Assembly (NCBI GenBank): GCA_014729775.1
Contig: WJJJ01000013.1
Span: 2,947-66,946, forward strand
Length of the DNA stretch: 64,000 nt
Direction of reading: 5' to 3'
From: Candidatus Omnitrophota bacterium
GTDB taxonomy: Bacteria > Omnitrophota > Gorgyraeia > Duberdicusellales > 4484-171
A program made the position numbers and the translations under genes. Of the stretch, positions 15,781 to 37,153 are shown piece after piece. The notes under the pieces were generated by a model. The model saw only the letters and a program-made list of their open reading frames with translations. It was not told where the DNA came from and made no database searches. The stretch's first letter is position 1. Each line of letters opens with the position of its first letter.

Positions 15781-15808
15781 CATTTGAGGCAAAAGGAAAG
15801 GATTTCGC

Positions 15809-16591: not shown

Positions 16592-16607
16592 TGGCACAGG
16601 AATTGCT
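16592..16607 (+). promoter_or_regulatory. sigma-54 (-24/-12) promoter TGGCACA-N4-TTGCT
   Basis: tTGGCACaggaaTTGCTt; GG 16593-94, GC 16605-06, 10-nt spacing; ~75 nt upstream of ATG 16682. Confidence 0.75.
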
Positions 16608-16681
16608 TTAATATCAGGTGGAACGTGGGAACACAAATGAATAGCTTGAAACGGAAGAGAGCAGAACAAGGAGGAATAGCG

Positions 16682-17575: not shown

Positions 17576-17603
17576 ACCTTTTGGCGGATTGTACAAGGTT
17601 CAA

Positions 17604-17640
17604 AAGAGGCAGGGATAATTCCCTGCCTCTTTCTTTTTTT
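17604..17640 (+). terminator. rho-independent terminator
   Basis: AAGAGGCAGGG-ataatt-CCCTGCCTCTT followed by T9 run. Confidence 0.8.
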
Positions 17641-17651
17641 AGACCGTAATC

Positions 17652-18682: not shown

Positions 18683-18763
18683 CGGATGTGGGTGAGCGGA
18701 GGAGGGGTGACGAAGAGTTGACAGAGGGCGAAAAAAGAGAGATTATAACGAGAGGAGGTGAGG

Positions 18764-21924: not shown

Positions 21925-22801
21925 AACTGCGGGAGAGGCCGATCAATTTTTCAGAGAAGCTTTCTGCCGGAATATCGGACTGCTGACCGAAGAGGAGCAG
22001 GAAAAGCTGCGGCGTACGACCGTCGGGGTTATCGGAGCCGGCGGCGTCGGCGGGCTGCACCTGACGACTTTGGCCCGTTTAGGCGTAGGAGGTTTCCATA
22101 TTGCCGACATGGACAGGTACGAATTAGCCAATGTCCAGAGACAGTGCGGCGCGTTCGTGCATACCCTCGGAAAAAATAAGGCGGAGGCAATGCGGGAGAT
22201 CGCGCTGGGGATCAATCCTCATCTGCGGCTTAAAGTATTTTCCGAGCAGATCGGCCGTGAAAATATTCATCAGTTCCTGGAAGGGGTGGATGTGCTCATT
22301 GACGGCATCGATTTTTTTTCGCTGGAAGCGCGGCGCTGCGCTTTCGATGCCGCCCGGGAACGGGGAGTATATACCGTCACCGCGGGGCCTCTGGGGTTCG
22401 GCAGTGCGATGCTGGTGTTCGCTCCCCAAGACGGGATGACGTTTGACGAATATTTTGATATTCATCCTGACATGAACGAGACGGAGAAGATTATCGCGTT
22501 CGCGGTAGGGCTTGCGCCGGCGGCTCTGCATATGCGTTATTTAAATCTTGGTTCGGTGAATCTGAAGAAAAAATCGGGACCGTCTCTGGTAACCGCGTGC
22601 ACGCTGTGCGGGGTGCTTGCCGCCACTGAGGTGATTCGCATTGTATTGAGAAAAGACAGACCGGCCGCGGTGCCGCATTATTTTCAATACGATCCGTATC
22701 TGCAGAAACTGAAGAAAGGATACGTGCGGTGGGGGAATCGTCATCCTCTTCAACGGGTCAAACGCTGGTATCTCGCCAGAAAACTCGGCGCTCGCGCCTG
22801 A
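21908..22801 (+). CDS. ThiF/MoeB/TcdA-family E1-like adenylyltransferase
   Basis: Rossmann nucleotide loop VGVIGAGGVGGLHLTTLARLGVGGFHIADMDRYELANVQRQ; 17-bp overlap with RND gene. Confidence 0.75.
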   Translation: MNSSAETAGEADQFFREAFCRNIGLLTEEEQEKLRRTTVGVIGAGGVGGLHLTTLARLGVGGFHIADMDRYELANVQRQCGAFVHTLGKNKAEAMREIALGINPHLRLKVFSEQIGRENIHQFLEGVDVLIDGIDFFSLEARRCAFDAARERGVYTVTAGPLGFGSAMLVFAPQDGMTFDEYFDIHPDMNETEKIIAFAVGLAPAALHMRYLNLGSVNLKKKSGPSLVTACTLCGVLAATEVIRIVLRKDRPAAVPHYFQYDPYLQKLKKGYVRWGNRHPLQRVKRWYLARKLGARA

Positions 22802-22837
22802 AGGCTTCTAATAACCGATCAAAAGAGGAGTAGCCTG

Positions 22838-23623
22838 ATGACTTACGGGAAGAGAATATTATGGATGTCCGCTTTATTTACCTGTATATGGCTCTCCTTC
22901 CCTCCCGGCGCAGCCGCCCAGGAGCTGAGCGGAGGGCAGATCATGGAAAAATCCTATTTTCGCGAGGACGGGAATGACGCTGAATTCAAGGTTGAGATGA
23001 TCTTAATCGACCGCCGCGGCCGCGCCAGGGACCGTACGCTGATGATGTATTTTAAAGATTACGGGAATTTGCGGAAAACATTTCTCAAGTTCACGGAACC
23101 GGCTGATATCGAGGGTACGAAGTTCTTATCCTGGGAAACCGAAAACGGCGAGGAGACGCAATACTTGTACCTTCCCGCGCTGGGCAGATCCAAGCGGATC
23201 GTGAGTAGCCAAAGGGACCTGCGGTTTGTGAATACTGATTTTACCTACGAGGATATGGAACGGCGCGAGCCCGGTCAGGATACCCATCGGTTTCTGCGGG
23301 ACGGTGAATCCCTGAACCGGCCGTGCTTTGTGGTGGAGAGCGTGCCCAAACCGGACACTTCCCAATACGGAAAACGCGTCAGCTGGGTAACGAAAGATTC
23401 TTTTGTGGTCGTCGCGGTTGATTTTTACGATACCCGGGAGAAGAAAATTAAGGAATTACGGGTGAAGGAGTTGGAGGAGGTCGAAGGGATCCCGACGGCG
23501 ATGAAAACGATAATGAAGGACCTTAAAGAGGATCACCGGACGGTGATGAAGGTTGAGTATGTGGAATATAATCAGGGGCTTGCGGATACGCTGTTTACGC
23601 TTTCCGCTCTCGAACGTAATTAG
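22838..23623 (+). CDS. LolA-like outer-membrane lipoprotein-sorting protein (type commonly paired with MMPL/RND exporters)
   Basis: Signal peptide; ~260 aa; KFLSWE...YLYLPALGRSKRIVSSQRDLRFVNTDFTYEDM resembles the LolA-like family; call from memory of the family. Confidence 0.5.
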   Translation: MTYGKRILWMSALFTCIWLSFPPGAAAQELSGGQIMEKSYFREDGNDAEFKVEMILIDRRGRARDRTLMMYFKDYGNLRKTFLKFTEPADIEGTKFLSWETENGEETQYLYLPALGRSKRIVSSQRDLRFVNTDFTYEDMERREPGQDTHRFLRDGESLNRPCFVVESVPKPDTSQYGKRVSWVTKDSFVVVAVDFYDTREKKIKELRVKELEEVEGIPTAMKTIMKDLKEDHRTVMKVEYVEYNQGLADTLFTLSALERN

Positions 23624-25001
23624 AAGTATTGGATTGGCGTTCGCGCTGAGTGCGGCGGCTTCGCATCCGATCACTGCGCAGGATGCGCTGGAAGGAGCAG
23701 TTTCCTGGTCTTCTTCAGGGGAGCTCGAATTCCGGGTGTTTCAGGACACGGTTGAAGATACCGAATACGAAGATCACCGGCAGTATTTCAGCCGGGCATT
23801 ATGGGAGAATGAGGTCCGGCTCGAAGGAAGTCCTTTGCGCGTTCAGATAAACGCTGAAGCGGTCGGAGAAGCCTGGTCGGGGGACGAGAGCAGAGAGGAC
23901 GCGGATGTATTCCTGCACGAAGCGTACGCGAGTTATGTCAAGGGAGCGCATGCGTTCACCGTCGGGCGTCAAGTGGTGACCTGGGGCCGGATTGAACGGT
24001 CCAGGCTGGACGTGTGGAATCCGCAGAGTTACCGGTGGTTTGTATTGTTTGATAAACAGCGTCGGAAAAGGGCGGTTCTGATGAGCCGCTATGAATATAT
24101 TGCTCCCCGCTTTGATCTCGAATTTGTCTGGATGCCCTGGTTTGAACCTTCTCAGTTGCTGTACTTCGGATCGGACTGGGCGCTGTTTGATCACACGAAA
24201 AAAATCATACGAGAGGAAGGTTATCCGCCGGCGGTGAAATCTCTGGTGAATGCGATCGAAATCCGGGCCGATCCTGAGCGGGAGAAGCACGCGCTCACCA
24301 ATTCTCAAGGCGGAGCGCGACTGCGCTCCCGGGCCGGGGATATCGATTACGCGCTCTATTATCTGAACGTGGCGCAGAATCTTGGAGTCCTGCAGGAATC
24401 GACGCCAAAGGGGAACCTGGTGAAACAGTTTTTGTATCTTCCCTCCGCCGGGAACCTGAACCGGCTGCTCGCGGCTGCCCCGGCCGGAGATGATCTTATT
24501 CTGCGCAAAGAACATCCAAGAATGCACCTGATCGGTGCCGACGCAGAAACCGTGTGGGGAGTAAGTTCGGTGCGAGCGGAGCTGGCCTACGCGACCAAAA
24601 TGGCGTATTTGCGGGAGGATTTTTCGTATGCGATCCACGATACCCTTTTTGGGGCGTGCGGGGCCGATTACACCGGTTCCGGCGGTCTGTATCTGAATAT
24701 CGATTTTCTTTACAGGCAAATTCTCGGTTATAGAGAGTTGTTTGCCGACGAAGAATATACCTTCCAAGTCGACGGCACGCTGCGGAAGGATCTCTGGAGA
24801 GGCAGCGCCGAATTCGTTCTGGACGGTTCGTTTAATTTCTCGCGGCATGACTGGATGATCAATCCGGTGGTCACCTGGAAAGCGAATCCCTCGTTTCACG
24901 TTTCCGCGGGAATGGTTTTTTTCGGCGGGGACTTAACGACTCTTTTTGGACGGTTTGATCAGAAAGATCTGGTATACGTCCGTACTCAATACTTCTTTTA
25001 A
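23553..25001 (+). CDS. putative outer-membrane beta-barrel protein (RND-cassette associated)
   Basis: Signal-peptide-like N-terminus (LAFALSAAASHPITAQD), alternating amphipathic strands, C-terminal ...YVRTQYFF terminal Phe; start uncertain (overlaps previous gene). Confidence 0.45.
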   Translation: MSMWNIIRGLRIRCLRFPLSNVIRSIGLAFALSAAASHPITAQDALEGAVSWSSSGELEFRVFQDTVEDTEYEDHRQYFSRALWENEVRLEGSPLRVQINAEAVGEAWSGDESREDADVFLHEAYASYVKGAHAFTVGRQVVTWGRIERSRLDVWNPQSYRWFVLFDKQRRKRAVLMSRYEYIAPRFDLEFVWMPWFEPSQLLYFGSDWALFDHTKKIIREEGYPPAVKSLVNAIEIRADPEREKHALTNSQGGARLRSRAGDIDYALYYLNVAQNLGVLQESTPKGNLVKQFLYLPSAGNLNRLLAAAPAGDDLILRKEHPRMHLIGADAETVWGVSSVRAELAYATKMAYLREDFSYAIHDTLFGACGADYTGSGGLYLNIDFLYRQILGYRELFADEEYTFQVDGTLRKDLWRGSAEFVLDGSFNFSRHDWMINPVVTWKANPSFHVSAGMVFFGGDLTTLFGRFDQKDLVYVRTQYFF

Positions 25002-25026: not shown

Positions 25027-25848
25027 TTACCGCATGATTTTTTCGAAATCGTACGTGGGGTAACATTTCTTGAGGTAGGCGAGGTGTTCCGGAGAGCAGT
25101 TTCGGAGGATTGGATGGCGTTCCACGAAAAACGAGCGCAGGTCGTCTTCCGAAAAACGGAATTTTCCGCTGAATTTTTCGGGTTCGTTCTTTACCCGCAG
25201 GAACATTTTCTGTAAATCTTCACGCTGCATCGTTTTGCATCGTTCTTCAAACCCGTGAAGGTTGATGTATTTGCCTATTGCCGGTGCTCCGTTGGCGTGA
25301 TTGTACGTCTTGAGCTCTCCCAGATCCTCAAACAGGAGAAAATCATAAATAAGCTTATGTTTTGGATGGAACGTGATGCAGGCAAAATCATAATCGTGAT
25401 ATATCGAAAGATAATCAAAGACAAGCTTGAACAGTGAAAAGATGAAGAACATTTTTTTTGCGTTCAACATGACCGATACGCCGCGAAAGAGGTCGGTATT
25501 GCTGGCGAGCATGGTCACTTCGCATACTTTTTTCCCCTGATCGCGTAACGCATCGATTTCATTGCGGTAAATTGCGTCCATGGGCAGGCCCAGAGGGGAA
25601 TCGGGGATCACCGAAACGGTGGAGAGGACAATGTCGTCTGCGACCGTGACAAACGTGCTGCTTTGCGGCAGTGCGTTGTAGACCGTGTAGCGCATCTGCG
25701 ACGGACATTCCTCGGTGTATCCGCGTTTCAGATATTCCCGATAGACGAGAGAGTACGCCTGAGTGATTTCCTCGCGTATGCGTGCGATACGGTAATCCAC
25801 CGAACGTAAGAGAGTTTTTACGTCTATGCAGTCTTGTGACATATTCAT
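25027..25848 (-). CDS. putative N-acyl amino acid synthase (LuxI/FeeM-like; exosortase-system-associated type)
   Basis: ~270 aa, N-terminal RIREEITQAYSLVYREYLKRGY; AT-rich gene; assignment from size, context and weak recollection of the family, not a firm match. Confidence 0.4.
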   Translation of the reverse strand: MNMSQDCIDVKTLLRSVDYRIARIREEITQAYSLVYREYLKRGYTEECPSQMRYTVYNALPQSSTFVTVADDIVLSTVSVIPDSPLGLPMDAIYRNEIDALRDQGKKVCEVTMLASNTDLFRGVSVMLNAKKMFFIFSLFKLVFDYLSIYHDYDFACITFHPKHKLIYDFLLFEDLGELKTYNHANGAPAIGKYINLHGFEERCKTMQREDLQKMFLRVKNEPEKFSGKFRFSEDDLRSFFVERHPILRNCSPEHLAYLKKCYPTYDFEKIMR

Positions 25849-26327
25849 GACTTTACGTGAATGTCCCCGTGCTGATCGAGATATTCGCTGAGAATCGTCC
25901 GGCTGACGTAGAAAACGAATTTCTGCCGGTCTTGAGGGGACATTTTGTGAAACCGGATTCCGGTAAGATACGCGGGATACGAAGAGGAGCCTGAATGCGT
26001 GTTCTCCGGCTGGGAATTCCAGATGACGTCGGCATCAACCGAGAAAGGTTTCTGTTCGTCCGGAAGCTTCAGTTTAAGCGAGATCACCTGTCCCCGGGTG
26101 AGCGGGACAGGGGAAAGAAAGCGCATCCCTCCGCCGCTGATATCTTCAATCGCGAGAGGGCGATGCCAACGATTCCGGCCGCTCATTGCAAATTCCATCT
26201 CCAGCGGGAGAGTGACCCGGTCGGTCTTTCGCTTCTCTTTGGCCAGCAAAGTCTGCAGTTTTTTCAACTCTTCCCGCATGAATGCTCCTCGCTGTTCCAT
26301 TATCGGCATATTTGGGCGTACTGTCAA
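25845..26327 (-). CDS. PilZ domain protein (c-di-GMP binding)
   Basis: KEKRKTDRVTLPL (RxxxR) and EDISGGGMRF (DxSxGG) PilZ motifs; ATGA-type overlap with downstream gene on minus strand. Confidence 0.75.
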   Translation of the reverse strand: MTVRPNMPIMEQRGAFMREELKKLQTLLAKEKRKTDRVTLPLEMEFAMSGRNRWHRPLAIEDISGGGMRFLSPVPLTRGQVISLKLKLPDEQKPFSVDADVIWNSQPENTHSGSSSYPAYLTGIRFHKMSPQDRQKFVFYVSRTILSEYLDQHGDIHVKS

Positions 26328-26569
26328 GGCGAAATCCGCCGGTTTGAGAGAGAACGACGCGTCCGCGAGAAGGAGAGAAGAGCTCGCGTGATCATCCGTG
26401 GGAGGGCATCACAAAATTTGTGGAATTTTCCCACAAAGAGCCAAAAATGTCGAAAAGATTGACATTGTTTAACTTGTTGATAAATATAGTGTTAAAGAAA
26501 CATTGTTCGTTTCCTTTGAGGCTTTGTTGATATTTATAGACATTTCGCCGATGGGGGGAACCGCCGAAT

Positions 26570-26597
26570 GAAAACGGTTTCAAGGAAAACGGTTTTA
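26570..26597. promoter_or_regulatory. two tandem AAAACGGTTTT palindromes (candidate enhancer / bEBP upstream activating sequence)
   Basis: Perfect 11-bp palindromes at 26571-26581 and 26586-26596, third half-like site AACCGTTTA at 26630-38; 75-100 bp upstream of the sigma-54 -24 element at 26673. Confidence 0.4.
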
Positions 26598-26671
26598 TAT
26601 CTCTAACAGTTTGATTCCCAACCGTTTATAGTTGACTTATTTCACCCTTTTTCGCGGGAGTAACTCTTATT

Positions 26672-26687
26672 TGGCATGGAATCTGCT
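26672..26687 (+). promoter_or_regulatory. sigma-54 (-24/-12) promoter TGGCATG-N4-CTGCT
   Basis: tTGGCATggaatCTGCTt; GG 26673-74, GC 26685-86, 10-nt spacing; 30 nt upstream of start 26717. Confidence 0.65.
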
Positions 26688-26716
26688 TTACCTTATACAA
26701 GCGCAGGTAAAAGAAA

Positions 26717-27598
26717 ATGGAGCGAATAGTCGGATATCCCAGTAGAGATGTGGATAAAAAGTTCCGCCGGGCGGTGCGAACCGTACGGAAGACCCTGCGG
26801 GAAATTACAAGACCTGACGTAAGAAGGGTCTGTGCTTCTTTTTTCCTGGGGGTGTTCCTGACCGGTACTGTTGCCGCGGTGGTGTGGTTAGTGCGCAGTT
26901 CTGTGTATGCTCAGTCGACTATGGTACGGTCGGCGGCTGTGCCGCTGGAATCGGTTCGTTGGGTGATGAGCGGGAGCTTGGCGAGCGCATTGATCAGTTT
27001 CGCCCGCGTAAAGTATCGCCTGGGAAAACGGTGTTTTGATGTGGCGGCGTCTGCGATCGGACTTATTTTGTCGGCGCCGTTGCTGATCATTATCGCGATA
27101 CTGGTGAAGCTTGAATCGGAAGGTCCGGTGTTCTTTACCCAGAAGCGGCTGGGGAAGAACGGCAAAATTTTCAATATTTGGAAATTTCGCACGATGCGCA
27201 ATAACGCCGAGATGGAAACCGGTCCGGTATGGGCGCAGGATGACGATCCCCGGGTCACCCGCTTGGGAAATTTCCTGCGTAAAACGCATATCGATGAACT
27301 GCCGCAATTATGGAATGTGGTGAGAGGGGACATGAGTCTTATCGGTCCGCGTCCGGAACGTCCCGAATTCTCGGAGCAGATTGCCTTTCACGTGCCGCAG
27401 TTTCGTCAGCGGATCGAGGTGAAACCAGGGATTACCGGTTTGGCACAGGTGCGCTATCAATACGGAGCATCAATACGCGATGCGTCGAGAAAATTGCGGT
27501 ACGATCAATTATATCTGCAGCGGATGTGTTGGTTTCTTGATTTCCAGATCCTGCTTTGGACTCTGGGACGGGTGATGACCGGCGAAGGCGCCAGGTAA
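26717..27598 (+). CDS. exopolysaccharide priming polyprenyl-phosphate sugar phosphotransferase (bacterial sugar transferase, EpsB/WbaP C-terminal type)
   Basis: KRCFDV...LLIIIAILVKLESEGPVFFTQKRLGKNGKIFNIWKFRTM...DELPQLWNVVRGDMSLIGPRPERPEF. Confidence 0.85.
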   Translation: MERIVGYPSRDVDKKFRRAVRTVRKTLREITRPDVRRVCASFFLGVFLTGTVAAVVWLVRSSVYAQSTMVRSAAVPLESVRWVMSGSLASALISFARVKYRLGKRCFDVAASAIGLILSAPLLIIIAILVKLESEGPVFFTQKRLGKNGKIFNIWKFRTMRNNAEMETGPVWAQDDDPRVTRLGNFLRKTHIDELPQLWNVVRGDMSLIGPRPERPEFSEQIAFHVPQFRQRIEVKPGITGLAQVRYQYGASIRDASRKLRYDQLYLQRMCWFLDFQILLWTLGRVMTGEGAR

Positions 27599-27615
27599 AC
27601 GAAGTTTCTCTGCTG

Positions 27616-28422
27616 ATGAAAACAGCGATACATATTTGGAAAGATTCCTGGCAGCTGCTCCAACGGCATTTAAAAGTGATCGTGCCGTTCGGGGTGACCG
27701 CGCTGGCGGGAGTGTTGGCCTTGTGGATTTTATATTTGGCGCCGCAGAAACCGGTATCGTATCTGCTGGCACCGCCGATCAGAAAATTCCTGGGGGAAAA
27801 GTTCCTTCATTATCCGTATCATTTATTTATTCTGCCCAAGTTGTTCTATTACGCAGAAAGGGTGATCATCGCCGTAGTCGGCGTGCTGATGACCGGAACC
27901 GCGATCGGGATGATCAAGGAAACGTTTGAAGGGAAAAGACCCCGTATTATGCGTAATTTCACGTACGCGCTTCGGAGATTTTTCGCGTTGTTTGTGATTC
28001 TCGCGGTGATGATGGGCGCGGCGATCCTGACGTCGGAAGCCGTAAAAGCGGTATTTGCGCAGAGGAACTTCGCTACGGCGCTCCTGATGTATCTGGCAGC
28101 GCTGATCCCTCAGGCGTTGTTTATTTACGCGCTGCCCGCGATCATTTTGGGCAGACAAAATGTGATCAGGGCATTCCATGAGGGAATAAAATTATTCGGG
28201 CGCCGGTCTTTGACGACTATTCTTTTTATTGTAGTTCCTGCGCTGGTCTATGTGCCAGTGCTGGCGCTCAACCAGATCGGCAGAAATTTAATCGTGAATA
28301 TCGCTCCGGAAGTGATCCTGGTGATGATCGGCCTGGGAATCATTGCGTCGTTGATCATCGAGATATGGACGATACTCGCGCCGACGGTATTGTATTTGAA
28401 AACAAAGGAGGGAAGTGTATGA
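27616..28422 (+). CDS. polytopic membrane protein, function unknown
   Basis: 6-7 predicted TM helices; ATG 27616 (listed ORF starts 27556); ATGA overlap with next gene. Confidence 0.4.
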   Translation: MKTAIHIWKDSWQLLQRHLKVIVPFGVTALAGVLALWILYLAPQKPVSYLLAPPIRKFLGEKFLHYPYHLFILPKLFYYAERVIIAVVGVLMTGTAIGMIKETFEGKRPRIMRNFTYALRRFFALFVILAVMMGAAILTSEAVKAVFAQRNFATALLMYLAALIPQALFIYALPAIILGRQNVIRAFHEGIKLFGRRSLTTILFIVVPALVYVPVLALNQIGRNLIVNIAPEVILVMIGLGIIASLIIEIWTILAPTVLYLKTKEGSV

Positions 28423-28619
28423 GTGGTAAGGTGAAACTGACATGTATGGTGTGCGCCCTGTGCGTCGCGTTTCTCACCGGATGTAAAGGCGGCGGTGGAG
28501 GAGGAGATCAGTATTCCTATCTGCAAGATATTCCTCATCAGCCTGAACCGGCGACAATCGTGATGTTCGGACTCGGCGCACTGGGCGTGTTCGGCGCGCG
28601 TAAGTTTAAAAAGAAATAA
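28419..28619 (+). CDS. mini PEP-CTERM lipoprotein (66 aa: lipobox signal peptide + Gly run + PEP-CTERM sorting signal)
   Basis: RBS AAGGAGGG; MSGKVKLTCMVCALCVAFLTGC (lipobox LTGC) KGGGGGGDQYSYLQDIPHQ PEPATIVMFGLGALGVFGARKFKKK. Confidence 0.7.
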   Translation: MSGKVKLTCMVCALCVAFLTGCKGGGGGGDQYSYLQDIPHQPEPATIVMFGLGALGVFGARKFKKK

Positions 28620-28648
28620 CATTGTTTGTGATCCAGAATTCATGAGTC

Positions 28649-28687
28649 GCAAAAGAGAAGAATAGTCTTCTCTTTTGCGCTTTTATA
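28649..28687 (+). terminator. rho-independent terminator
   Basis: GCAAAAGAGAAGA-atagt-CTTCTCTTTTGC perfect 13-bp stem followed by GCTTTTAT. Confidence 0.8.
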
Positions 28688-28699
28688 AGGAGTGTCAAG

Positions 28700-30145
28700 A
28701 TGCGAATCGCGCAGATTACGGTGTTGGCGGGATGCGTGGCGGTATTGGCCGCCTGCGGAGACGCACGTTACGGATCGGAAAAGCTGTACTGGAAAGCTGA
28801 ACAGCGGGCGGCAAAAATAATTGCCCGTAAAGGTCCCGGGAATCTCACCGCCGACGATTATGCCCGGATTATCGAAGGGTATCGCAGGGTTACCAGTACC
28901 TATCCTTATCAGTACAAGACCGTGCAAGCGCATTTTGATATCGCGCGGGTGTATTTGGCGCAGGATAAATTCGAACCGGCGCTTGAAGAACTGGAAACAG
29001 TGATCCACAATTTTTCGGCCGCGCCGAAAATCGCGTCACGGGCGCAGTTCGCGATCGCGAAACTTTACGAAGCGCGGCGCGAGTATGAAACCGCGCTGGA
29101 GGAATACGACAAAATTCTTGATTTATATCCGGTGACCCCAATCGGCCTGGAAACACCGATTTACCTTATCCGCTTTCATGAACGCGTGCGCGATGATCAG
29201 GAGGAGGCTGCACGTGCCTATCAGCGGGCGCTGAGGCACTACCGCTCGCTTGCCGGAGAATACGGGGAGGAGACCCCGGTCGGGGTGGCGGTAAAAGATT
29301 ACCTGGCGCGAACGTATTTATTGAAAGAGCAGTGGCAGGATGCCGCCGGCGTGTGGGAAGAAGTGATGAACCAGAAAGAAGTGCCTTTGCTGGCTGGCAA
29401 GGCCCAGCTCGCGCGCGCATCGTTGTTCGCAGACCAGCTCAAGGAACCTTCCCGCGCGATCGAATTGTACAAATCGTTCGAGCAGAAATTTCCGCGCAGC
29501 CGCATGCTGCCAATGGCTCTTTTTCAGTTGGGACGGGTGTATCTTAAGGAAGGAAACCTTCCCGAGGCGAAAGAAACGTTTGAGAAAATAATCACGCAGT
29601 TTCCCCGGAATACGGAACTGAATATCCTGTCCCGGGTTGCTATCGCGGAAGCGTATAAAAAGGAAGGAGATCTGGAAGCGGTACGGCGGGAGTATACGAC
29701 ATTAGAGAGCGCCTATCCGGAGAGTCCGAAAGTGTTCGCGGTGCCTTACCTTCTCTATACCTATTACCGCGATGCCGGACGCGATACTAAGGCGGCGATG
29801 CTGCTGGAGCTGGCGATTACTGAGTATGAAAAAAAACTGGAGCGGATCGTCGATCAGCGAAAAAAGGATGCGCTGGCGCAGTGGCTGATTCTTTCGTACC
29901 GGGAAAAAGGTCAATGGCAAAAAGCTATCGACGTGCTTGATCAGCTTGCTGAAGATTTCCCCGGGGATCCGCGGTATCCGCTGGCGGCCGCCGCGCTGTA
30001 TAAGAATCAAATGAAAGATCCTGCGGGAGCGTTAAAGATGTACGAAGAGGTGCAGAACGCGTATCCGCTGAACGAGATGGTTACCGATTCACTCCAGAAA
30101 CAGATTGAGTCTCTGCAGGGAGTACTGAAGGTGGGGGATCAGTGA
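28700..30145 (+). CDS. TPR-repeat lipoprotein (half-size PrsT-like)
   Basis: Lipobox VLAACGD; repeated TPR-like helical hairpins (YP..P...A.F.IA..Y); paralogous to next gene. Confidence 0.7.
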   Translation: MRIAQITVLAGCVAVLAACGDARYGSEKLYWKAEQRAAKIIARKGPGNLTADDYARIIEGYRRVTSTYPYQYKTVQAHFDIARVYLAQDKFEPALEELETVIHNFSAAPKIASRAQFAIAKLYEARREYETALEEYDKILDLYPVTPIGLETPIYLIRFHERVRDDQEEAARAYQRALRHYRSLAGEYGEETPVGVAVKDYLARTYLLKEQWQDAAGVWEEVMNQKEVPLLAGKAQLARASLFADQLKEPSRAIELYKSFEQKFPRSRMLPMALFQLGRVYLKEGNLPEAKETFEKIITQFPRNTELNILSRVAIAEAYKKEGDLEAVRREYTTLESAYPESPKVFAVPYLLYTYYRDAGRDTKAAMLLELAITEYEKKLERIVDQRKKDALAQWLILSYREKGQWQKAIDVLDQLAEDFPGDPRYPLAAAALYKNQMKDPAGALKMYEEVQNAYPLNEMVTDSLQKQIESLQGVLKVGDQ

Positions 30146-31569
30146 AGCGTGCCGGGTTCTCGATTTCATGGGGATGGATTACTGCTGTCGCCGCGGTGCT
30201 GGCGCTTTCGGGTTGTGTGGATCCCGGCTACCGGGCCGAACGGCTTTTTTGGCAGGCCGAACGCAAGGCAGATGAAGTATTCAAAAAAGGCATCGATAAT
30301 TTTACCGACGAGGATTTTGAAACGCTTATCGGGCTTTACCGGAAAGTAGTGGAAGCCGCCCCTCTTGAAGACGAAAGCTCCCAGGCGCAGTTCATTATTG
30401 CCGATCTCTATACCTACCAGCATAAATACCGGAAAGCACAGCAGCAGTTACTGCAGATAGAGAATAATTTTTTTACCAAACCGGTGATCGCTTCCCGTGC
30501 GAAATTTTTCATGGCTAAGCTTTACGAAAAAAGGGAGAAGCCGGAGGAAGCAATTCAATATTACGAGGAATTAATGTCTAAGTATCCGGTGACGCCGATC
30601 GGGCTCACCCTGCCGCGGTACTTAATGACAAAATATAAAGAAGAGGGGAGTGCCGGGAAAGCCCGGGAGTTTTACGACCGCGCGATTACCCACTACCAGG
30701 ATCTTCTGTCGCAGTATACCGATACCGCGGTCGCGCCGACGGTGTACGACGCGTTAGCCGAATTGTATCTGGCGGAAGGTGAACCGGAAAAAGCCCTGGA
30801 GATGTGGGATCGGATCATTCTTGATTATCCGGAAAGCGGCTATATTCCTAAAGCGTATACCTCAAAAGCGGAAACGTATGTCCGGCAGTTATCTCACATG
30901 AAGAACGCGCAAGAGGTGTATGAGCAGTTCAGCGAACGCTATCCTGATTTTCCTCAGCGGCCGGAAATCGAACTGCGGCTGGCCCGGCTGTATCTTCAGG
31001 ATGACAAGACAGCCAAAGCCAAACGCATCTATCGCGAGATCATCAATGAATTTCCAGAAAAGTCGACCCTCCTCGCGCAGGCCTATGCGGGACTTGCCGA
31101 ATGTTATCAGAAAGAAGCGAATACCGGGAAAATGGAGGAAACCTACGGGTACATTCGGGAACATTTTCCCGACTCACAGGCGGCGTTCATGATACCATTT
31201 TTGACCGCCCGGTACTATGAGCAAACGGGGTTTCATCAGAAAGCTCAACGCGGATATCGGCAGGCGGCAAAGAAATACGAACAATATCTGGCGAAGCATC
31301 CTGATCCTCGCGTAAAAAAAGAAGCGGCAAATGTGCTTACATTATGTTATATTAAGACAAACCGGGTGAGCGACGCGGTGGCGTTACTGGAAAAGCTCTC
31401 AACGGCGTTTCCCCGTGATCCGATGTATTTATTCGATCTTGCAACCTTGTACGTAAATCTGCATAAGCCGGAAAAAGCCCGGGAGGTTTACCAAACCATC
31501 CAGGAGAAATATCCGACGAATTATTTCGTGAACCGGCTCGCGCAGCGGAGGATGAATACGCTTCGGTAG
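30142..31569 (+). CDS. TPR-repeat lipoprotein (half-size PrsT-like, paralogue)
   Basis: Lipobox LALSGCVD; shares motifs with previous gene (YPVTPIGL..P.YL, ASRAKF..AKLYE); GTG start overlapping upstream stop. Confidence 0.7.
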   Translation: MKRAGFSISWGWITAVAAVLALSGCVDPGYRAERLFWQAERKADEVFKKGIDNFTDEDFETLIGLYRKVVEAAPLEDESSQAQFIIADLYTYQHKYRKAQQQLLQIENNFFTKPVIASRAKFFMAKLYEKREKPEEAIQYYEELMSKYPVTPIGLTLPRYLMTKYKEEGSAGKAREFYDRAITHYQDLLSQYTDTAVAPTVYDALAELYLAEGEPEKALEMWDRIILDYPESGYIPKAYTSKAETYVRQLSHMKNAQEVYEQFSERYPDFPQRPEIELRLARLYLQDDKTAKAKRIYREIINEFPEKSTLLAQAYAGLAECYQKEANTGKMEETYGYIREHFPDSQAAFMIPFLTARYYEQTGFHQKAQRGYRQAAKKYEQYLAKHPDPRVKKEAANVLTLCYIKTNRVSDAVALLEKLSTAFPRDPMYLFDLATLYVNLHKPEKAREVYQTIQEKYPTNYFVNRLAQRRMNTLR

Positions 31570-31612: not shown

Positions 31613-32473
31613 ATGAATAAGAAGATCTCATTTGCCGGTATCGAACTTACCCTCAGGACGTTGCGGCGGATTGTGCTTATGAGCGCGCTTTTCGCGGCGG
31701 TGTATTTTCCCGTAATCCCCCATTTTATCTCGCGGTTTTCCGCCCGTGATTCCTATTATTCTCATGGTTTCTTGATCCCTGTGGTTTCGCTGTATTTGGT
31801 GTTTCGCAGCCGGGAAATACTGGCCCGTATACCCACATGGCCGCATCCGGCCGGTTTCGCGCTGATTCTTTTAGGGCTGGCAATGTATCTGATCGGGTAT
31901 GTGCTTCAGATCAATTTCGGGATGTACGCGAGCCTGCTGCCGGTGCTCTTCGGATTAGCGCTGTATTTGGGGGGATCGCAATACTTCCGGGTATTGTTCT
32001 TTCCCATTCTATTTTTGGGATTCATGCTGCCGCTGCCGCAAGTATTCATTATCGGCGCTTCATTCCGGTTGAAACTCATGGCCGCGCAGGCAGCGACGTT
32101 CCTGTCGCGAATGATGGGAATAGAGGCAGTGCAAAATGGATCGATGATTTACTATCCGGGCGGGCAGATACTTGTCGGAGATCCCTGCAGCGGGTTGAGG
32201 TCGTTGATTGCATTTATCGCGCTCGGGGCGCTGTGTGCTTATCTGGCACGGGGAAGTACGATCAAACGGGTGTTACTGTTTGTTCTTGCCGTGCCGGTCG
32301 CGCTTTTCTCAAATCTGTTGAGGCTGACCTTTCTGGTCGGGGTCGGCTATGTCTACGGCGAAAAAATCGCTTCGGGGACGGTGCATGATGTTTCAGGGAT
32401 GCTGGTGTTTGTACTCGGTTTTCTCTGTTTTGTGGGTCTTATCCGGCTGTTAGGCTGCCGGATTGAGGTGTGA
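31613..32473 (+). CDS. xrtA: exosortase (EpsH/XrtA-type archaeosortase/exosortase family)
   Basis: 8 TM helices; conserved Cys in GDPCSGLRSLIAF and downstream Arg in NLLRLTFLVG, the exosortase catalytic signature; XrtA subtype assigned from context only. Confidence 0.85.
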   Translation: MNKKISFAGIELTLRTLRRIVLMSALFAAVYFPVIPHFISRFSARDSYYSHGFLIPVVSLYLVFRSREILARIPTWPHPAGFALILLGLAMYLIGYVLQINFGMYASLLPVLFGLALYLGGSQYFRVLFFPILFLGFMLPLPQVFIIGASFRLKLMAAQAATFLSRMMGIEAVQNGSMIYYPGGQILVGDPCSGLRSLIAFIALGALCAYLARGSTIKRVLLFVLAVPVALFSNLLRLTFLVGVGYVYGEKIASGTVHDVSGMLVFVLGFLCFVGLIRLLGCRIEV

Positions 32474-32474
32474 A

Positions 32475-33116
32475 ATGCGCAAAAATATTTTTCGTTCTTT
32501 TCTGACCGTTCCCTATTTTCAGGTCGCCTGCCTGTTCGCAGCTGCGGCATTGTTGATCGGGAAGATGGAACTGTCTGCCCGTTCCTCTCCGGCTCCCTCT
32601 CAAATTTCGTTCCCGATGCAGATTGGAGAATGGAAAGGAAAAGACCTGGAGGTTGACGAAAGTACCTATGAGATCCTGGAAACGCGGGACGTGATCTCCC
32701 GGGAATATACCGATCCCGACGGCGATACGCTGTATTTTTCGCTCGTGTACGCGCAGGATACCCGGCACAGCTTTCATCCTCCCGAACTCTGTTATGTCGG
32801 GGGCGGTGTGGAGGTCATGGGCAAGGAAAAGGCCGAAATCCCGCTCGATCAGGATCAATTAACCGTAAACGTCCTGTACATGAAAGCCGGGTATGGAAAC
32901 CTGCGCGCCTGGTACTGGTTTTCTGCCGGTTCGGAATTCACCGACAGCTATGTAGGCCAGCAAATACGGCTTTTTTTCGACGTCATGCGCGGGGAAAAAC
33001 CGTCCGGCGCGCTGATCAGAGTCTCGACCCCTTCTCCGGAATCGGCACCCAAGGCCGAATCCTTCATCCGAAAGCTCATCCCTCCTCTCAAACGGACCCT
33101 CGAAAAAATAGGTTGA
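32475..33116 (+). CDS. epsI: EpsI-family exosortase-associated protein
   Basis: Single TM then FHPPELCYVGGGVEV (H.PE.CY.G.G EpsI motif); ATG 32475 (alt TTG 32463), adjacent to exosortase stop. Confidence 0.8.
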   Translation: MRKNIFRSFLTVPYFQVACLFAAAALLIGKMELSARSSPAPSQISFPMQIGEWKGKDLEVDESTYEILETRDVISREYTDPDGDTLYFSLVYAQDTRHSFHPPELCYVGGGVEVMGKEKAEIPLDQDQLTVNVLYMKAGYGNLRAWYWFSAGSEFTDSYVGQQIRLFFDVMRGEKPSGALIRVSTPSPESAPKAESFIRKLIPPLKRTLEKIG

Positions 33117-33141
33117 TAAAGAATTTTTGAAATGTTATACT
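33113..33141 (+). promoter_or_regulatory. sigma-70-like promoter (TTGATA-N17-TATACT)
   Basis: -35 TTGATA 33113-18, -10 TATACT 33136-41, 17-bp spacer, 25 nt upstream of ATG 33166. Confidence 0.5.
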
Positions 33142-33165
33142 TTAGTTCTCCTCAAAAGAGAACCT

Positions 33166-34374
33166 ATGGAGTCAAATCCGTACGAAAATCCAGTAAAAGA
33201 ATTTCTTACGGTCAGTCTGGACCGCTGTATGCAGGAAGTAAATGCCGGTTCGGGCTCGATCTTTCTCGTGGACGAGGTGACCCAGGACCTTGTCCTTGAA
33301 ATTATCCACAGTAAAGAAAGGCGTAATCTTGAAGGAACCCGCACCAAGCTCGGAGAACGGGTGTCCGGCAGGGTCGCGCAGGAACGAAAACCCTTTCTAG
33401 TGGCGAATATTGATTCCGAACCGTCGTTCGGTACCTTTCCTCGTTATTCTCACTACCAGTCTAAATCGTTTTTGTCGGTTCCCCTCGAATCATCGGGCAC
33501 TCTGCTTGGAGTGGTGAATCTCACGGAAAAGGGGGACGGGACCGTATTTGATAATGATGATCTTGATGCCGTGATGCTTATCGCCAGACAGCTGGGGATT
33601 GCGCTCGAGAAACTGAAACTATTTTCCGCCTCTCAGAAAACCGAATATTTGCGGCTGAAAGCCGAACGGGAGAATCTTTCCCGGTCAATCGAACAGTATA
33701 AGAAATTCTCTTCGCTCGGGAAATTCATCGGCGGGCTCGTACACGAGATCAATAACCCGCTGGACGGAGTCATGCGATACATAAACTTAAGCATGGACCG
33801 CGTGCAGTCCGACGAGGTGCTCAAAGAGTATCTGCAGGAGTCGCAGAAGGGATTGCAGCGTATCGCTCAATTCGTACGTTCATTGCTCGATTTTTCCTGG
33901 AGCATGTCCTCGGCGGGCCGGGAGATCGACGTGAACCGGATCTTTGAAGAAACCCGTTTCCTGTATGACGGTGAATTGCGTTCCGGCAATGTGTCGGTGG
34001 AAACGGAACTGGACTCCAATCTGCCCAAGATCCCGGATTACGGGCTTAAGATTGTGCTGAATAATCTTTTCAAGAATGCCCGGGAGGCGATGCAGCCGGA
34101 GGGCGGGGTAATACGGGCCAAGACGCGTAAGATTCCCGGCGGTATTATGGTGGAGTTTTCCGATACGGGTGCCGGCATTCCTGCCGAGGTAAAAGGAAGG
34201 ATTTTTGAACCTTTTTTCACCACGAAGCAGATGGGAGAAGGGTCCGGGCTGGGACTGGCGTTGGTGAGTGAAATCGTAGAGAAATATAAAGGAACGATCC
34301 ACGTGGACAGCGGCCGGGGAGCCGGCACTACTTTTCGTATTTTCCTTCCCGCCTCAAATTTTCAGACGACATGA
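33166..34374 (+). CDS. cytoplasmic GAF-domain sensor histidine kinase
   Basis: GAF-like N-terminus, H-box LVHEINNPLD, N-box LNNLFKNAREA, G-boxes DTGAGI / GSGLGL. Confidence 0.8.
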   Translation: MESNPYENPVKEFLTVSLDRCMQEVNAGSGSIFLVDEVTQDLVLEIIHSKERRNLEGTRTKLGERVSGRVAQERKPFLVANIDSEPSFGTFPRYSHYQSKSFLSVPLESSGTLLGVVNLTEKGDGTVFDNDDLDAVMLIARQLGIALEKLKLFSASQKTEYLRLKAERENLSRSIEQYKKFSSLGKFIGGLVHEINNPLDGVMRYINLSMDRVQSDEVLKEYLQESQKGLQRIAQFVRSLLDFSWSMSSAGREIDVNRIFEETRFLYDGELRSGNVSVETELDSNLPKIPDYGLKIVLNNLFKNAREAMQPEGGVIRAKTRKIPGGIMVEFSDTGAGIPAEVKGRIFEPFFTTKQMGEGSGLGLALVSEIVEKYKGTIHVDSGRGAGTTFRIFLPASNFQTT

Positions 34375-35756
34375 AATCGCACAACAAGATCCTGATCGTT
34401 GATGATGAACCGCTCACCCGCAAATCACTGCAGGAAATTCTCAGGAAAGACGGGTATGCGGTTTCGTCTGCCGGGGACGGGGAAAACGCGTGTGAAATAG
34501 TGGCACGCGAAGTGCCGGATGTGGTCCTGACCGATTTTAAACTGCCCGGCATGGACGGTCTGCAATTGTTGAAAAAAATAAAAGAACAGTATCCGGGAAT
34601 CGAGGTCGTTCTTATTACCGCTTACGGTTCCATAGAGCACGCGGTAAAAGCCATGCGCGAAGGGGCGTTCGATTACGTCACCAAGCCGATCATTGATGAT
34701 GAAATCAAAATTATCATCCGCAGGGTATTCGAGCAGAAGAAAATTCTTGATGAGAATGAGTTCCTGAAACGGCAGCTTACCTCGCATGCGCGGGAGAAGT
34801 TCCACACGATTATCGGCAAGAACCCCCGCATGCAAAAAATTTATAATTTGATTGAAACCGTCGCGCCGACCAATGCGATTATTTTGATTCAGGGCGACAG
34901 CGGGACGGGAAAACGGGTAGTGGCTCACGCGATTCACCGTGCGGATTATCATCGGAAAGACCATCCCTTGATCGAAGTCAGTTGTGGGGCATTGCCGGAG
35001 AATCTGCTTGAGAGCGAGTTGTTCGGCCACGTCAAGGGCGCGTTTACCGGAGCGATTAAGGATAGGCAGGGAAGATTCGAAGCCGCCCATGAGGGGACGA
35101 TCTTTCTCGATGAGATCGATACCTTCAGTCCGAAACTGCAGGTGAAGCTTTTGCGTATCTTGCAGGAAGGGGAATTCGAACGGGTAGGAGATACCAAAAC
35201 GATTCAGGTCAACGTCCGGGTCATTGCCGCGACAAATCAGGATTTAAAAGAATTGATTCAGCAGGGAACATTCCGGGAGGATCTATATTACCGGCTTAAC
35301 GTGATCCCCATACATCTGCCTCCTTTGCGGGAACGCCGGGACGACATCCCCCTGCTTATTCAGCACTTTTTGGAAAAAGGCGGCCGGAAACTTTCGGTGA
35401 AACCAAAACAGTTTTCCCCGGAAGCGATGGGGATATTGTGCAGTTACGAATGGCCGGGCAACGTGCGCGAACTGGAGAACGTGGTGGAACGCGCCTTAAT
35501 TCTTTGCAAGTCGAAAACCGTCGGCCCTGATGATCTGCCTGAAGCCGTGCAGAATTCACCGGTGACCGCAGATACCGGCAGTGTGGCTGATGAAAGCGTT
35601 TCGCTTAAAGACGCGCTTCGGGTGTCTGAGAAAAAGATCATCGCCGAGGCGCTGGAAAGATGCGGATGGAACCGGAAGAAAGCGTCTTTGATGTTAGGAA
35701 TTAACCGTACCACGCTTTATAATAAGATGAGAGACTACGGTTTGCTGGATGAATAG
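34371..35756 (+). CDS. sigma-54-dependent (NtrC-family) response regulator
   Basis: REC (ILIVDDE...D), AAA+ GDSGTGKR Walker A, ESELFGHVKGAFTGA, C-terminal HTH; ATGA overlap with kinase. Confidence 0.85.
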   Translation: MKSHNKILIVDDEPLTRKSLQEILRKDGYAVSSAGDGENACEIVAREVPDVVLTDFKLPGMDGLQLLKKIKEQYPGIEVVLITAYGSIEHAVKAMREGAFDYVTKPIIDDEIKIIIRRVFEQKKILDENEFLKRQLTSHAREKFHTIIGKNPRMQKIYNLIETVAPTNAIILIQGDSGTGKRVVAHAIHRADYHRKDHPLIEVSCGALPENLLESELFGHVKGAFTGAIKDRQGRFEAAHEGTIFLDEIDTFSPKLQVKLLRILQEGEFERVGDTKTIQVNVRVIAATNQDLKELIQQGTFREDLYYRLNVIPIHLPPLRERRDDIPLLIQHFLEKGGRKLSVKPKQFSPEAMGILCSYEWPGNVRELENVVERALILCKSKTVGPDDLPEAVQNSPVTADTGSVADESVSLKDALRVSEKKIIAEALERCGWNRKKASLMLGINRTTLYNKMRDYGLLDE

Positions 35757-35761
35757 GCTTT

Positions 35762-37153
35762 TTAACCGCGGATTCTTTTCCGGCGATGATAGGGAGGGAT
35801 CCTCAATTCTTCCCGGTATTTTGCCACTGTTCTTCGTGCGATTCTTATACCCTTGCCACTCAGCTGCTGCGCGATTTGCGAGTCTTTGAGGGGCTCATCC
35901 GCCGTTTCTTCTTCAATCAGCGAAAGGATTTCTTCTTTTACCATTTCCTGGGAAATATCGGCGCCGTTGCTTGAAGGAAAAGATTTGGTAAGGAAAAAAT
36001 CAAGCCGGTAGATGCCGTAGGGCGTGGAAATATATTTGTTATTTACTACCCGGCTTACGGTCGATTCGTTGCGGTGTGCTTTCAGGGCGATATCCTTGAG
36101 TGTTAACGGATTGAGCCGGGCCGGATCTCCCTGAAGAAAGAATTCTTTTTGATGTTCCACGATAAGGGTCCCGATCCTGCGTATGGTTTCTTCTCTTTTC
36201 ATCACCGCTTTGATTACCGTGAGAGCGTATTTCACTTTTCCGCGAATGTACCGTTTCGTTTCGGGAGAAAGCTCTCCTTCCCTGAGCAATTCCAGGTAAC
36301 GGCTGCTCACCCGTAGTCGGGGCAGGAACGAATTGTTTACCCTGATTTCCAGACTGCTTTTATGCTGTTCTACGGTAAGGTCTGGTTGAGAGGCGGCGTT
36401 AAACTGCCGGGTAAAGGCAGTGAATTTGTCCCCGGGGCGGGGAGCGAGAGAGGAAATTTCCTTTTTCGCGGCAAGTACCTCTCGATGCGGGATTTTGAGC
36501 TTCCTGGAGATCGCCGCGATTTTATTTTTCGCGAGTTCGGGGAGACAGGAAGTAATAATACGATAGGCGGGAGAGTCTTTTTTCCCTCTGCGTTCCAGCT
36601 GAAGCAGAAGACTCTCTTTTAGATTACGCGCCCCGACTCCCGGAGGATCGCAGGTTTTTAACGTTTCTATCGCCGTTTCTATTTCTTCCGGAGAGAACGG
36701 GGTATGATGTTCGTTGCGCAGGAAGAGCGAAATTTCCTCAGAAGAGAGATTGAGATAACCGTTTTCATCTAAATTGCCCACCAGAAATTCCAGGATCAGC
36801 TGCTGACGGGAAGAGAGAGGCTGGATACGAATTTGACTGAGTAAATGCTCGGGTAGCGTGCGGGAGGACGTGATCAGCGATTCGGTGTAATTGCGCCGTT
36901 TGGCGGCTTCTTCCGGAGACAGACCCAGCGCAATATAGGGGTTTTCCTGTTCGGGGCGCGTGAGCTGTTCGGTTTGCTTCAGTAAATCCCTTTCCGGAGG
37001 ATCTATACATTCCAGTATCGGATTTTCTTCTGCCTGTGCTTCAAGAAAATGGCGTAAATCGGTTACCGGGAGCTGCAAAATACGCAGAAACTGACGCATT
37101 TGCGGGGTAAGTGCCAGCGTCTGGGTGAGTTTCTGACTTTGTTTAATTTCCAT
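35762..37153 (-). CDS. rpoN: RNA polymerase sigma-54 factor
   Basis: Gln-rich N-terminal region I, C-terminal HTH and RpoN box ARRTVAKYREELRIP. Confidence 0.9.
   Translation of the reverse strand: MEIKQSQKLTQTLALTPQMRQFLRILQLPVTDLRHFLEAQAEENPILECIDPPERDLLKQTEQLTRPEQENPYIALGLSPEEAAKRRNYTESLITSSRTLPEHLLSQIRIQPLSSRQQLILEFLVGNLDENGYLNLSSEEISLFLRNEHHTPFSPEEIETAIETLKTCDPPGVGARNLKESLLLQLERRGKKDSPAYRIITSCLPELAKNKIAAISRKLKIPHREVLAAKKEISSLAPRPGDKFTAFTRQFNAASQPDLTVEQHKSSLEIRVNNSFLPRLRVSSRYLELLREGELSPETKRYIRGKVKYALTVIKAVMKREETIRRIGTLIVEHQKEFFLQGDPARLNPLTLKDIALKAHRNESTVSRVVNNKYISTPYGIYRLDFFLTKSFPSSNGADISQEMVKEEILSLIEEETADEPLKDSQIAQQLSGKGIRIARRTVAKYREELRIPPYHRRKRIRG

Follow-up and report, generated by a model that had tools for sequence, protein, structure and literature searches.

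What can a protein do that consists of almost nothing but two processing signals? This question is raised by a short gene in a 64,000-nt window (the whole stretch of DNA analysed, to which all coordinates refer) of the Candidatus Omnitrophota contig WJJJ01000013.1. The gene, here called the mini-gene, encodes a 66-amino-acid (aa) mini-protein in which a lipoprotein signal peptide is joined by a Gly run to a PEP-CTERM sorting tag. Environmental diderm bacteria commonly possess PEP-CTERM/exosortase systems, which are linked to the formation of exopolysaccharide (EPS) and flocs. To our knowledge, neither the cut site within the tag nor the attachment partner of exosortase has been established twenty years after the system was described, and such a minimal natural substrate offers a direct way into the exosortase product. 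The evidence below indicates that the mini-gene is genuine and no chance open reading frame (ORF), and that its predicted product is the shortest found of a large, widespread and unnamed subclass of PEP-CTERM proteins, dual-signal and passenger-less. Its function may be that of a tether.

The translation of 28419-28619 (MSGKVKLTCMVCALCVAFLTGCKGGGGGGDQYSYLQDIPHQPEPATIVMFGLGALGVFGARKFKKK) is identical to the peptide quoted in an earlier reading of this DNA made from the letters alone (hereafter the sequence-only reading), and both of its ends pass formal tests (Table 1). The PROSITE rule PS51257 asks for {DERK}(6)-[LIVMFWSTAG](2)-[LIVMFYSTAGCQ]-[AGS]-C, with the Cys at position 15-35 and a Lys or Arg within the first seven residues; the 66-aa form presents CALCVA-FL-T-G-C, with Cys22, Lys4 and Lys6. 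At the C-terminus, P42-E43-P44 is followed by the helix A45-A60, the basic residues R61-K66 and the stop codon, and the protein scores 28.1 bits against Pfam PF07589 (cutoff 20.7, E value 2e-6) and 25 bits against TIGR02595 (cutoff 16). Exactly 19 residues, among them two Ser and no Thr, separate Cys22 from Pro42, close to the roughly 20 first estimated. The strong ribosome-binding site, the ATGA overlap with the upstream membrane-protein gene and the perfect terminator that had been described were all located. The TGA of the membrane-protein gene occupies 28420-28422 and shares ATGA with the mini-gene start, while the hairpin stem (28648-28679) is a perfect 14 bp with a 4-nt loop, at -28.2 kcal/mol and with z = -5.65 relative to shuffled sequences, and is followed by CTTTT. 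This hairpin is not kept in the related locus L012 (L-numbers denote related loci and P-numbers database proteins), where the mini-gene overlaps the TPR gene. An Rfam scan of 26400-29000 returned no RNA family and so points to no RNA-element alternative.

The public record (P0001, from a Candidatus Omnitrophica metagenome-assembled genome) annotates an 84-aa product that starts at 28365. This start was rejected: it would place the Cys at position 40, where PS51257 fails, it is not preceded by a ribosome-binding site, and it overlaps the upstream gene by 58 nt. By contrast, the start at 28419 agrees with the ribosome-binding site, with the lipobox rule and with the position of the Cys in the family described below (17-31). 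For these reasons the 66-aa start is, on present sequence evidence, the better call.

A word-indexed homology search with the 66-aa sequence matched only the sequence itself, and therefore synteny via the upstream membrane protein was used; exact look-up of the 66-aa and 84-aa products matched no contig. The contigs of the membrane-protein homologues share a gene order of sugar transferase, membrane protein, variable slot, TPR lipoprotein, exosortase, EpsI, kinase and regulator. The slot holds a mini-gene of 95 aa in L012/L013/L024, of 90 aa in L021 and of 136 aa in L014/L015, and each of the encoded proteins has a lipobox whose Cys is followed by a Gly/Ser run, then a low-complexity spacer and H-x-N-PEPAT with a helix and a basic tail. 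A hidden Markov model (HMM) scan of the fetched loci added L016, with the mini-gene between the transferase and membrane-protein genes, and L031 and L033, with the mini-gene directly before the membrane-protein gene. Altogether, the mini-gene adjoins the membrane-protein gene in the window and in seven distinct exosortase loci of uncultured, Omnitrophota-type organisms (L012, L014, L016, L021, L031, L033 and L062), is one or two genes away from it in L061 and L063, and follows Poly_export (Wza), Wzz/GNVR, AAA ATPase and ParA/AAA_31 kinase-like genes in L058-L060; the same or a similar position is found in 12 distinct loci besides the window. In L061, L062 and L063 it belongs to the exosortase core operon, where it either adjoins the membrane-protein homologue or stands one gene away, the intervening gene belonging to a ~260-aa PEP-CTERM family (HWTxxCGND, see below). 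The contexts reached from the mini-protein itself, which avoid the ascertainment bias of a search with the membrane protein, are exosortase/EPS loci in six of six cases (L058-L063). Start and stop codons overlap between the mini-gene and the gene before it in the window, in L012/L013 (the membrane-protein gene) and in L059 (the ParA-like gene). The sequence-only reading would have been contradicted by a lack of conservation in related exosortase loci; instead, the architecture is widespread and keeps its position.

A profile of the four syntenic minis recovered more short proteins of the same plan, for example a 72-aa Omnitrophota protein (...IAGCKGGGGGGSS...NHQPEPATLALFG...). When a 19-member profile (A3) was searched against 1.84 billion representatives of 50%-identity clusters, it gave 13,680 matches at E ≤ 1e-3, many of them surely to the tail only, and 304 at E ≤ 1e-10. 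Of the 150 best matches, about 125 are 77-139 aa long and full-length, running from profile position 1-8 to 88-92. The sequences retrieved are strikingly uniform, and members with organism labels include Omnitrophica/Omnitrophota. The top of the list is inflated by very long entries (P0097, of 2500 aa with 10 matched stretches, P0098-P0103 and similar) with 3-10 internal PEP-CTERM matches; they look like read-through concatenations of tandem genes and may be gene-calling artefacts or stem from recoded lineages.

Across the 137 members on which statistics were computed, length ranges from 66 to 139 aa (median 95), the window member being the shortest found, and the spacer from 19 to 88 residues (median 47; G 24%, S 21%, D 7%, T 6%). 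The lipobox is mostly L-[AST]-G-C, with the Gly run directly after the Cys. Directly before PEP stands Asn (95/137) or Gln (11/137), together 106 of the 137, and 82 have His at the position before that. Conservation is confined to the two ends of the minis, and the low-complexity spacer between them varies in length. An HMM built without the window sequence scored the window mini at 47.1 bits in total, with separate matches to the N-terminal (20.4 bits) and the C-terminal (28.5 bits) module, and the protein shares the remaining family traits: it is shorter than ~140 aa, with a low-complexity Gly/Ser-rich spacer and no folded domain.

For the window mini and ten other members, the generic PEP-CTERM domain model was the sole model at cutoff, and none of the named PEP-CTERM subfamily models (PepA, THxN, EDSAP-1, XDP1, FxDxF, cistern and others) reached its cutoff; the PepA flocculation model NF033554 gave the window mini 20.9 bits, from the tail only, against a threshold of 80 bits. 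No Pfam or NCBIfam model describes a lipobox-plus-PEP-CTERM mini class, and our full-text literature searches found no description of such proteins, in agreement with the earlier statement that minimal dual-signal proteins lack a functional description. The founding study of the system describes the PEP-CTERM tag, EpsH, the TPR lipoprotein and the kinase/regulator pair, and not the mini class (Haft 2006, PMC1569441). Deposited names of members are 'PEP-CTERM sorting domain-containing protein' or 'hypothetical protein'; present annotation thus labels these genes generically or gives them a wrong start, as with the 84 versus 66 aa here. A family of this size, with a common H-N/Q-PEP signature and with genes that accompany those of the machinery, merits a model of its own.

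These relatives also bear on whether the window ORF could be spurious or a non-functional remnant, for instance a PEP-CTERM gene in decay or a copy of the 5' end of a TPR-lipoprotein gene joined to a stray tail. The window member is the shortest and had no match but itself in the word-indexed search, and the DQYS that follows its Gly run resembles the C-x-x-DQYSIE that opens the TPR lipoproteins of distant loci. Against these points stand intact ORFs of the same architecture, present at many loci that have diverged and in hundreds of clusters at 50% identity, the match of the leave-one-out profile to both ends, and the good ribosome-binding site, translational coupling and terminator, so that we judge such an origin very improbable. 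Two specific derivations were considered and not adopted. Descent from a TPR-lipoprotein 5' end, suggested by the DQYS shared after the Cys, does not agree with the absence of this motif from most members, and descent from the gene of the 260-aa PEP-CTERM protein was discarded because both genes stand side by side in L014, L061 and L063.

A more serious question is whether the minis are simply small cargo, that is, short, disordered and possibly glycosylated Gly/Ser-rich peptides of the surface or matrix for which the lipobox is just an export or anchoring signal. Their PEP-CTERM tail is the same as that of the cargo, their spacers are rich in Ser, Thr and Asp like many PEP-CTERM proteins, the L061 and L063 minis lie within a run of PEP-CTERM cargo genes, and the slot can be filled instead by a 260-aa PEP-CTERM protein. 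However, the lipobox is confined to the minis: among the PEP-CTERM ORFs of the fetched loci it is present in all 12 complete minis and in none of the 46 larger (>150 aa) proteins. The His-Asn/Gln before PEP is likewise specific to the minis, the cargo of the same window having V-I-PEP, and the mini-genes are single-copy genes within core operons, often translationally coupled to machinery genes and apart from the cargo arrays. Since the window spacer has only two Ser and no Thr, display of glycans cannot be the common function. We therefore regard small cargo as rather unlikely; the family traits hint at a structural or coupling role instead.

The minis agree with described PEP-CTERM proteins in having the canonical tag of PEP, hydrophobic helix and basic cluster, above the Pfam and TIGRFAM cutoffs, in a window that encodes an exosortase, EpsI, TPR lipoprotein, histidine kinase, sigma-54 regulator, EpsB-like transferase, polysaccharide deacetylases and a cargo array. 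Described PEP-CTERM proteins have an ordinary signal peptide and a passenger, whereas the minis have a lipobox, 19-88 low-complexity residues and essentially no passenger, with His-Asn/Gln in place of Val/Ile before PEP. Since conservation is restricted to the ends, with a short and variable Gly/Ser-rich spacer between them, we infer that the function lies in linking a lipid anchor to the exosortase partner, and hence in a physical link and not in a fold. Our preferred, and tentative, proposal is that the mini-protein may be a flexible lipid-anchored tether or adaptor that is coupled by exosortase to EPS, to the surface matrix or to a second lipid, in the way that Braun's lipoprotein works. 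The presence and significance of both predicted signals, the position of the gene, the size of the family, the mini-exclusive lipobox, the His-Asn/Gln that contrasts with the V-I-PEP of the cargo, the start-stop overlaps and the nearby exosortase all argue for such a tether.

The precursor would enter the inner membrane as a hairpin, its two hydrophobic segments embedded and a loop of 19 residues exposed to the periplasm. Lgt and LspA, whose processing of lipoboxes is textbook knowledge, would lipidate Cys22 and remove residues 1-21, and the neighbouring exosortase would cut at or near PEP, take off the C-terminal helix and pass the new C-terminus to its acceptor. This would leave a mature, Gly-rich lipopeptide some 20-22 residues long. 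Exosortase cleavage of PEP-CTERM is itself deduced from the analogy with sortase and archaeosortase (PMC1569441; bioRxiv 10.1101/2023.06.07.544157). Because only 19 residues lie between the lipidated Cys and PEP, one small lipopeptide is expected as the mature product, and its C-terminal adduct could be read directly by mass spectrometry.

The comparison with Braun's lipoprotein, Lpp, is one of function. Lpp is a very small protein with an N-terminal lipid anchor and a C-terminus that a Cys-dependent transpeptidase attaches covalently to a polymer of the envelope, and the mini-protein, known here from its sequence, is proposed to work likewise. Lpp is a trimeric coiled coil with its C-terminal Lys linked to peptidoglycan by L,D-transpeptidases. 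In contrast, the mini-protein shows no homology to Lpp, is Gly-rich and presumably disordered, lacks a heptad pattern and carries a cleavable PEP-CTERM tag served by an exosortase, and its mature C-terminus would be at or near PEP and not a C-terminal Lys. In the archaeosortase A/PGF-CTERM and rhombosortase/GlyGly-CTERM systems, removal of the tag is coupled to lipid attachment, on substrates that are large. If exosortase behaved likewise, the mini-protein would become a doubly lipidated peptide; the tag and the enzyme family member differ, and we know of no demonstration of lipid attachment for exosortase. In Neisseria-type surface lipoproteins (TbpB, fHbp), the lipobox Cys is followed by a Gly run that serves as a flexible anchor. 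The mini-protein, compared with them by description only, also has a Gly run directly after the lipobox Cys, although TbpB and fHbp have large folded domains and no C-terminal sorting tag.

Several observations weigh against the tether. The mini-gene is absent from the fetched DNA of 5 of 11 close sister loci: in L010, L017, L018 and L019/20 the slot holds the ~260-aa non-lipoprotein HWTxxCGND PEP-CTERM protein, and in L023 it is empty. The slot is empty in L008 too, where a GEVED-type 260-aa protein is encoded on the opposite flank of the membrane-protein gene. The mini-protein is therefore either dispensable or encoded elsewhere. Seven of the eight cases in which the mini-gene adjoins the membrane-protein gene were reached with that membrane protein as the query and are subject to ascertainment bias. 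A tether to EPS is an analogy only, because the acceptor of exosortase has not been established for any PEP-CTERM protein, and the lipidation, cleavage and expression of the members are predictions from sequence. A 19-residue spacer is too short to span the periplasm, limiting what the mini-protein could bridge, and the Gly run next to the Cys might simply be a tether of the kind that lipoproteins commonly have. The roles first proposed for the mini-protein were those of a dedicated substrate, a primer or acceptor, a tether between lipid and polysaccharide, and a regulator. Of these, a dedicated, operon-encoded substrate or tether fits the evidence better than an indispensable primer does, because sister loci fill the slot with the 260-aa non-lipoprotein PEP-CTERM protein or leave it empty.

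The Gly run, which directly follows the Cys and is the most conserved feature of the spacer, admits a bolder scheme. In sortase A anchoring, the pentaglycine of lipid II is the nucleophile, and the run Gly-Gly-Gly-Gly behind the free alpha-amine of a diacylglyceryl-Cys could by analogy resolve the exosortase acyl-enzyme, with cargo being attached to the mini-protein or minis being joined head to tail. The gene is encoded with the machinery and not with the cargo, and the exosortase acceptor is an open question (Haft 2006, PMC1569441). This scheme is improbable in our estimation, since the gene is absent from several sister loci, just 33 of 137 members have Lys at +2, and the mini-protein would not need a PEP-CTERM tag of its own unless it polymerises. 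Moreover, Lnt acylates the Cys alpha-amine in most diderms and leaves no free amine. Taken more broadly, it is a long shot that the mini-protein is a lipid-anchored, Gly-tipped acceptor or self-polymerising unit for PEP-CTERM cargo, a diderm counterpart of lipid II-pentaglycine, or else a two-tailed lipopeptide lipidated at its C-terminus by exosortase. If true, either the acceptor or the two-tailed lipopeptide would reveal the long-sought exosortase product.

Co-transcription with machinery genes, and the place of the mini-gene as the last gene before a strong hairpin, would also suit a regulator or decoy. Such a minimal pseudo-substrate would occupy or tune the exosortase, the CysZ-fold membrane protein or the TPR lipoprotein, and so set sorting capacity or report flux to the kinase and sigma-54 regulator; the His-Gln that replaces Val-Ile at the cleavage site could alter processing kinetics. 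However, the kinase is a soluble-looking GAF-HisKA protein without an obvious periplasmic sensor, the variable length and composition of the spacer provide no binding surface, and no precedent was found in the literature searched. We give a regulatory role little credence.

Table 1 Features of the mini-gene and its locus in the 64,000-nt window
Feature	Position	Strand	Details
Array of seven ordinary PEP-CTERM cargo genes, 212-375 aa	12442..18512	+	no lipobox in any; tails V-I-PEPATLLLLGSGL
Sigma-54-type promoter-like site TGGCATGGAATCTGCT	26672..26687	+	30 nt 5' of sugar-transferase start; candidate promoter of three-gene unit
Polyprenyl glycosylphosphotransferase (Bac_transf, EpsB-like catalytic domain only, 293 aa)	26717..27598	+	PF02397 227.7 bits; first gene of unit
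Polytopic membrane protein, 268 aa, unnamed family	27616..28422	+	translationally coupled to mini-gene
Shine-Dalgarno AGGAGG	28406..28411	+	7 nt 5' of ATG 28419; direct sequence reading
Mini-protein coding sequence	28419..28619	+	66 aa plus stop; ATG at 28419, TAA stop 28617-28619
Predicted lipoprotein signal peptide MSGKVKLTCMVCALCVAFLTG and lipobox Cys22 (L-T-G-C)	28419..28484	+	PROSITE PS51257 rule
Spacer KGGGGGGDQYSYLQDIPHQ, 19 residues	28485..28541	+	Gly run directly after Cys22; His-Gln directly before PEP
PEP-CTERM sorting domain	28542..28616	+	PEP 28542-28550; hydrophobic helix ATIVMFGLGALGVFGA 28551-28598; basic tail RKFKKK 28599-28616
Intrinsic-terminator-like hairpin and CTTTT	28648..28684	+	between mini-gene and first TPR gene; 29 nt past stop
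TPR lipoprotein 1, 481 aa	28700..30145	+	TPR families; lipobox; N-terminal motif C-G-D-A-R-Y-G-S-E-K-L-Y-W
TPR lipoprotein 2, 475 aa, paralogue of TPR lipoprotein 1	30142..31569	+	TPR families
Exosortase, 286 aa, presumed processor of mini-protein tag	31613..32473	+	PF09721 208.4 bits; TIGR02602 166.2 (cutoff 105.55)
EpsI exosortase-associated protein	32463..33116	+	TIGR02914 103.6 bits (cutoff 42.8); PF11984
GAF histidine kinase	33127..34374	+	PrsK model 87 bits (cutoff 300)
Sigma-54-dependent response regulator	34371..35756	+	PrsR model 422.7 bits (cutoff 502.6)

The mini-gene is the third and last gene of a unit that begins with the sugar transferase and the 268-aa membrane protein and is bounded by the sigma-54-like site 5' and the hairpin 3'. 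The exosortase gene lies 3 kb 3' of it, and its product scores 69 bits against the catalytic-signature model exo_archaeo TIGR04178 (cutoff 23). The XrtA model TIGR03109 is the best-scoring exosortase subtype at 173.8 bits, short of its cutoff of 208. The sugar transferase narrowly misses TIGR03025 (294.5 bits, cutoff 295.55) and falls well below TIGR03013 (265, cutoff 393), and the two TPR lipoproteins score 45.9 (TPR lipoprotein 1) and 61 bits against a PrsT cutoff of 312.2. The EpsB/TPR neighbourhood seen in the sequence-only reading was right in kind, whereas an XrtA system in the strict sense is not indicated, as the exosortase, kinase, regulator and TPR proteins all score under the curated XrtA-system cutoffs. 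For the same reason, the first 37 kb of the window is, by these model scores, an exosortase/EPS locus of an XrtA-like but distinct lineage, and its putative PrsK, PrsR and PrsT counterparts are analogous components, not equivalogs. The exosortase is accompanied by several other PEP-CTERM proteins, namely the seven ORFs at 12442-18512, and glycosyltransferases and polysaccharide deacetylases are encoded further 5' of this cargo array. A scan of genome contigs with the exosortase found only Phycisphaerales loci, at 32-35% identity and with no PEP-CTERM ORFs nearby.

The TPR lipoproteins are tandem paralogues in the window and a single copy in every related locus. Across loci they share the mature N-terminal motif C-x(1-3)-[DS]-[RQ]-Y-x-[SA]-E-[KR]-[LKY]-[LFY]-W, which the DQYS after the Gly run of the mini-protein resembles.

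The coupled membrane protein (27616-28422) matched no Pfam or NCBIfam model. It has about 25 homologues at 27-42% identity, all from uncultured organisms and with an invariant GE[KQ]FLHYP motif. Recorded homologues are P0002-P0027, L061:4546-5412, L062:7108-7968 and L063:9369-10205. In Omnitrophota-type exosortase loci its gene is almost always directly 5' of the TPR lipoprotein gene, and the two are paired in every locus with enough sequence. The AlphaFold model is all-helical and polytopic (pLDDT 93.4); its best real fold match is CysZ (3tx3) at a TM-score of 0.56/0.64 but with an E value of 0.19, followed by weaker matches to choline-transporter-like proteins and by nothing protease-like. 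This ~270-aa family seems to be a core, and so far undescribed, component of the exosortase lineage in question.

The ~260-aa PEP-CTERM family that alternates with or adjoins the mini-gene in the slot between the membrane-protein and TPR genes also lacks a family model. It is recognised by an N-terminal Y-I-I-D-G..DWGV and a C-terminal HWT[MQ]xCGND before PEP, and its members are found at 12442-13248 (+) in the window and at L010:6780-7583, L014:7185-7973, L017:6807-7610, L018:6823-7617, L019:6838-7668, L061:3498-4262 and L063:8358-9125. P0115 (367 aa), a database protein, represents a read-through from a mini into a member of this family. In L008 (3791-4573), the 260-aa GEVED-domain PEP-CTERM protein encoded before the membrane-protein gene has an N-terminus (...LSGGGGGGGGSS) with a mini-like Gly run and no lipobox Cys, and may be a fused or derived relative of the minis.

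Sigma-54 components are present within the same locus: rpoN (35762-37153, -) and two sigma-54 activators (10866-12278 and 34371-35756). Matches to the sigma-54-type -24/-12 pattern also lie at 12384-12399 and 13515-13530 (+), 30-60 nt before the first two cargo genes. The window-wide count of sigma-54-like sites is not above chance, and it is their placement alone that is suggestive; with a strict regular expression, the site before the sugar transferase was found in the window only and in none of 10 related loci.

Between the cargo array and the exosortase core, a row of genes at 19543-25001 (+) codes for a 793-aa transporter of MMPL/RND type, a ThiF-family protein, a LolA-like protein of 261 aa and a DUF1302-like protein. 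Together they may constitute an export module for lipids or lipoproteins that is linked to the system. An IS200-like (Y1_Tnp) transposase ORF (18758-19468, +) follows the cargo array and precedes the MMPL gene. At 25027-26327 (-), two genes divergent from the sugar-transferase operon code for a FeeM-like N-acyl amino acid synthase and for a PilZ-domain protein. This pair recurs at L014:649-1925, beside an AMP-binding/acyltransferase fusion reminiscent of the exosortase-system-associated acyltransferase.

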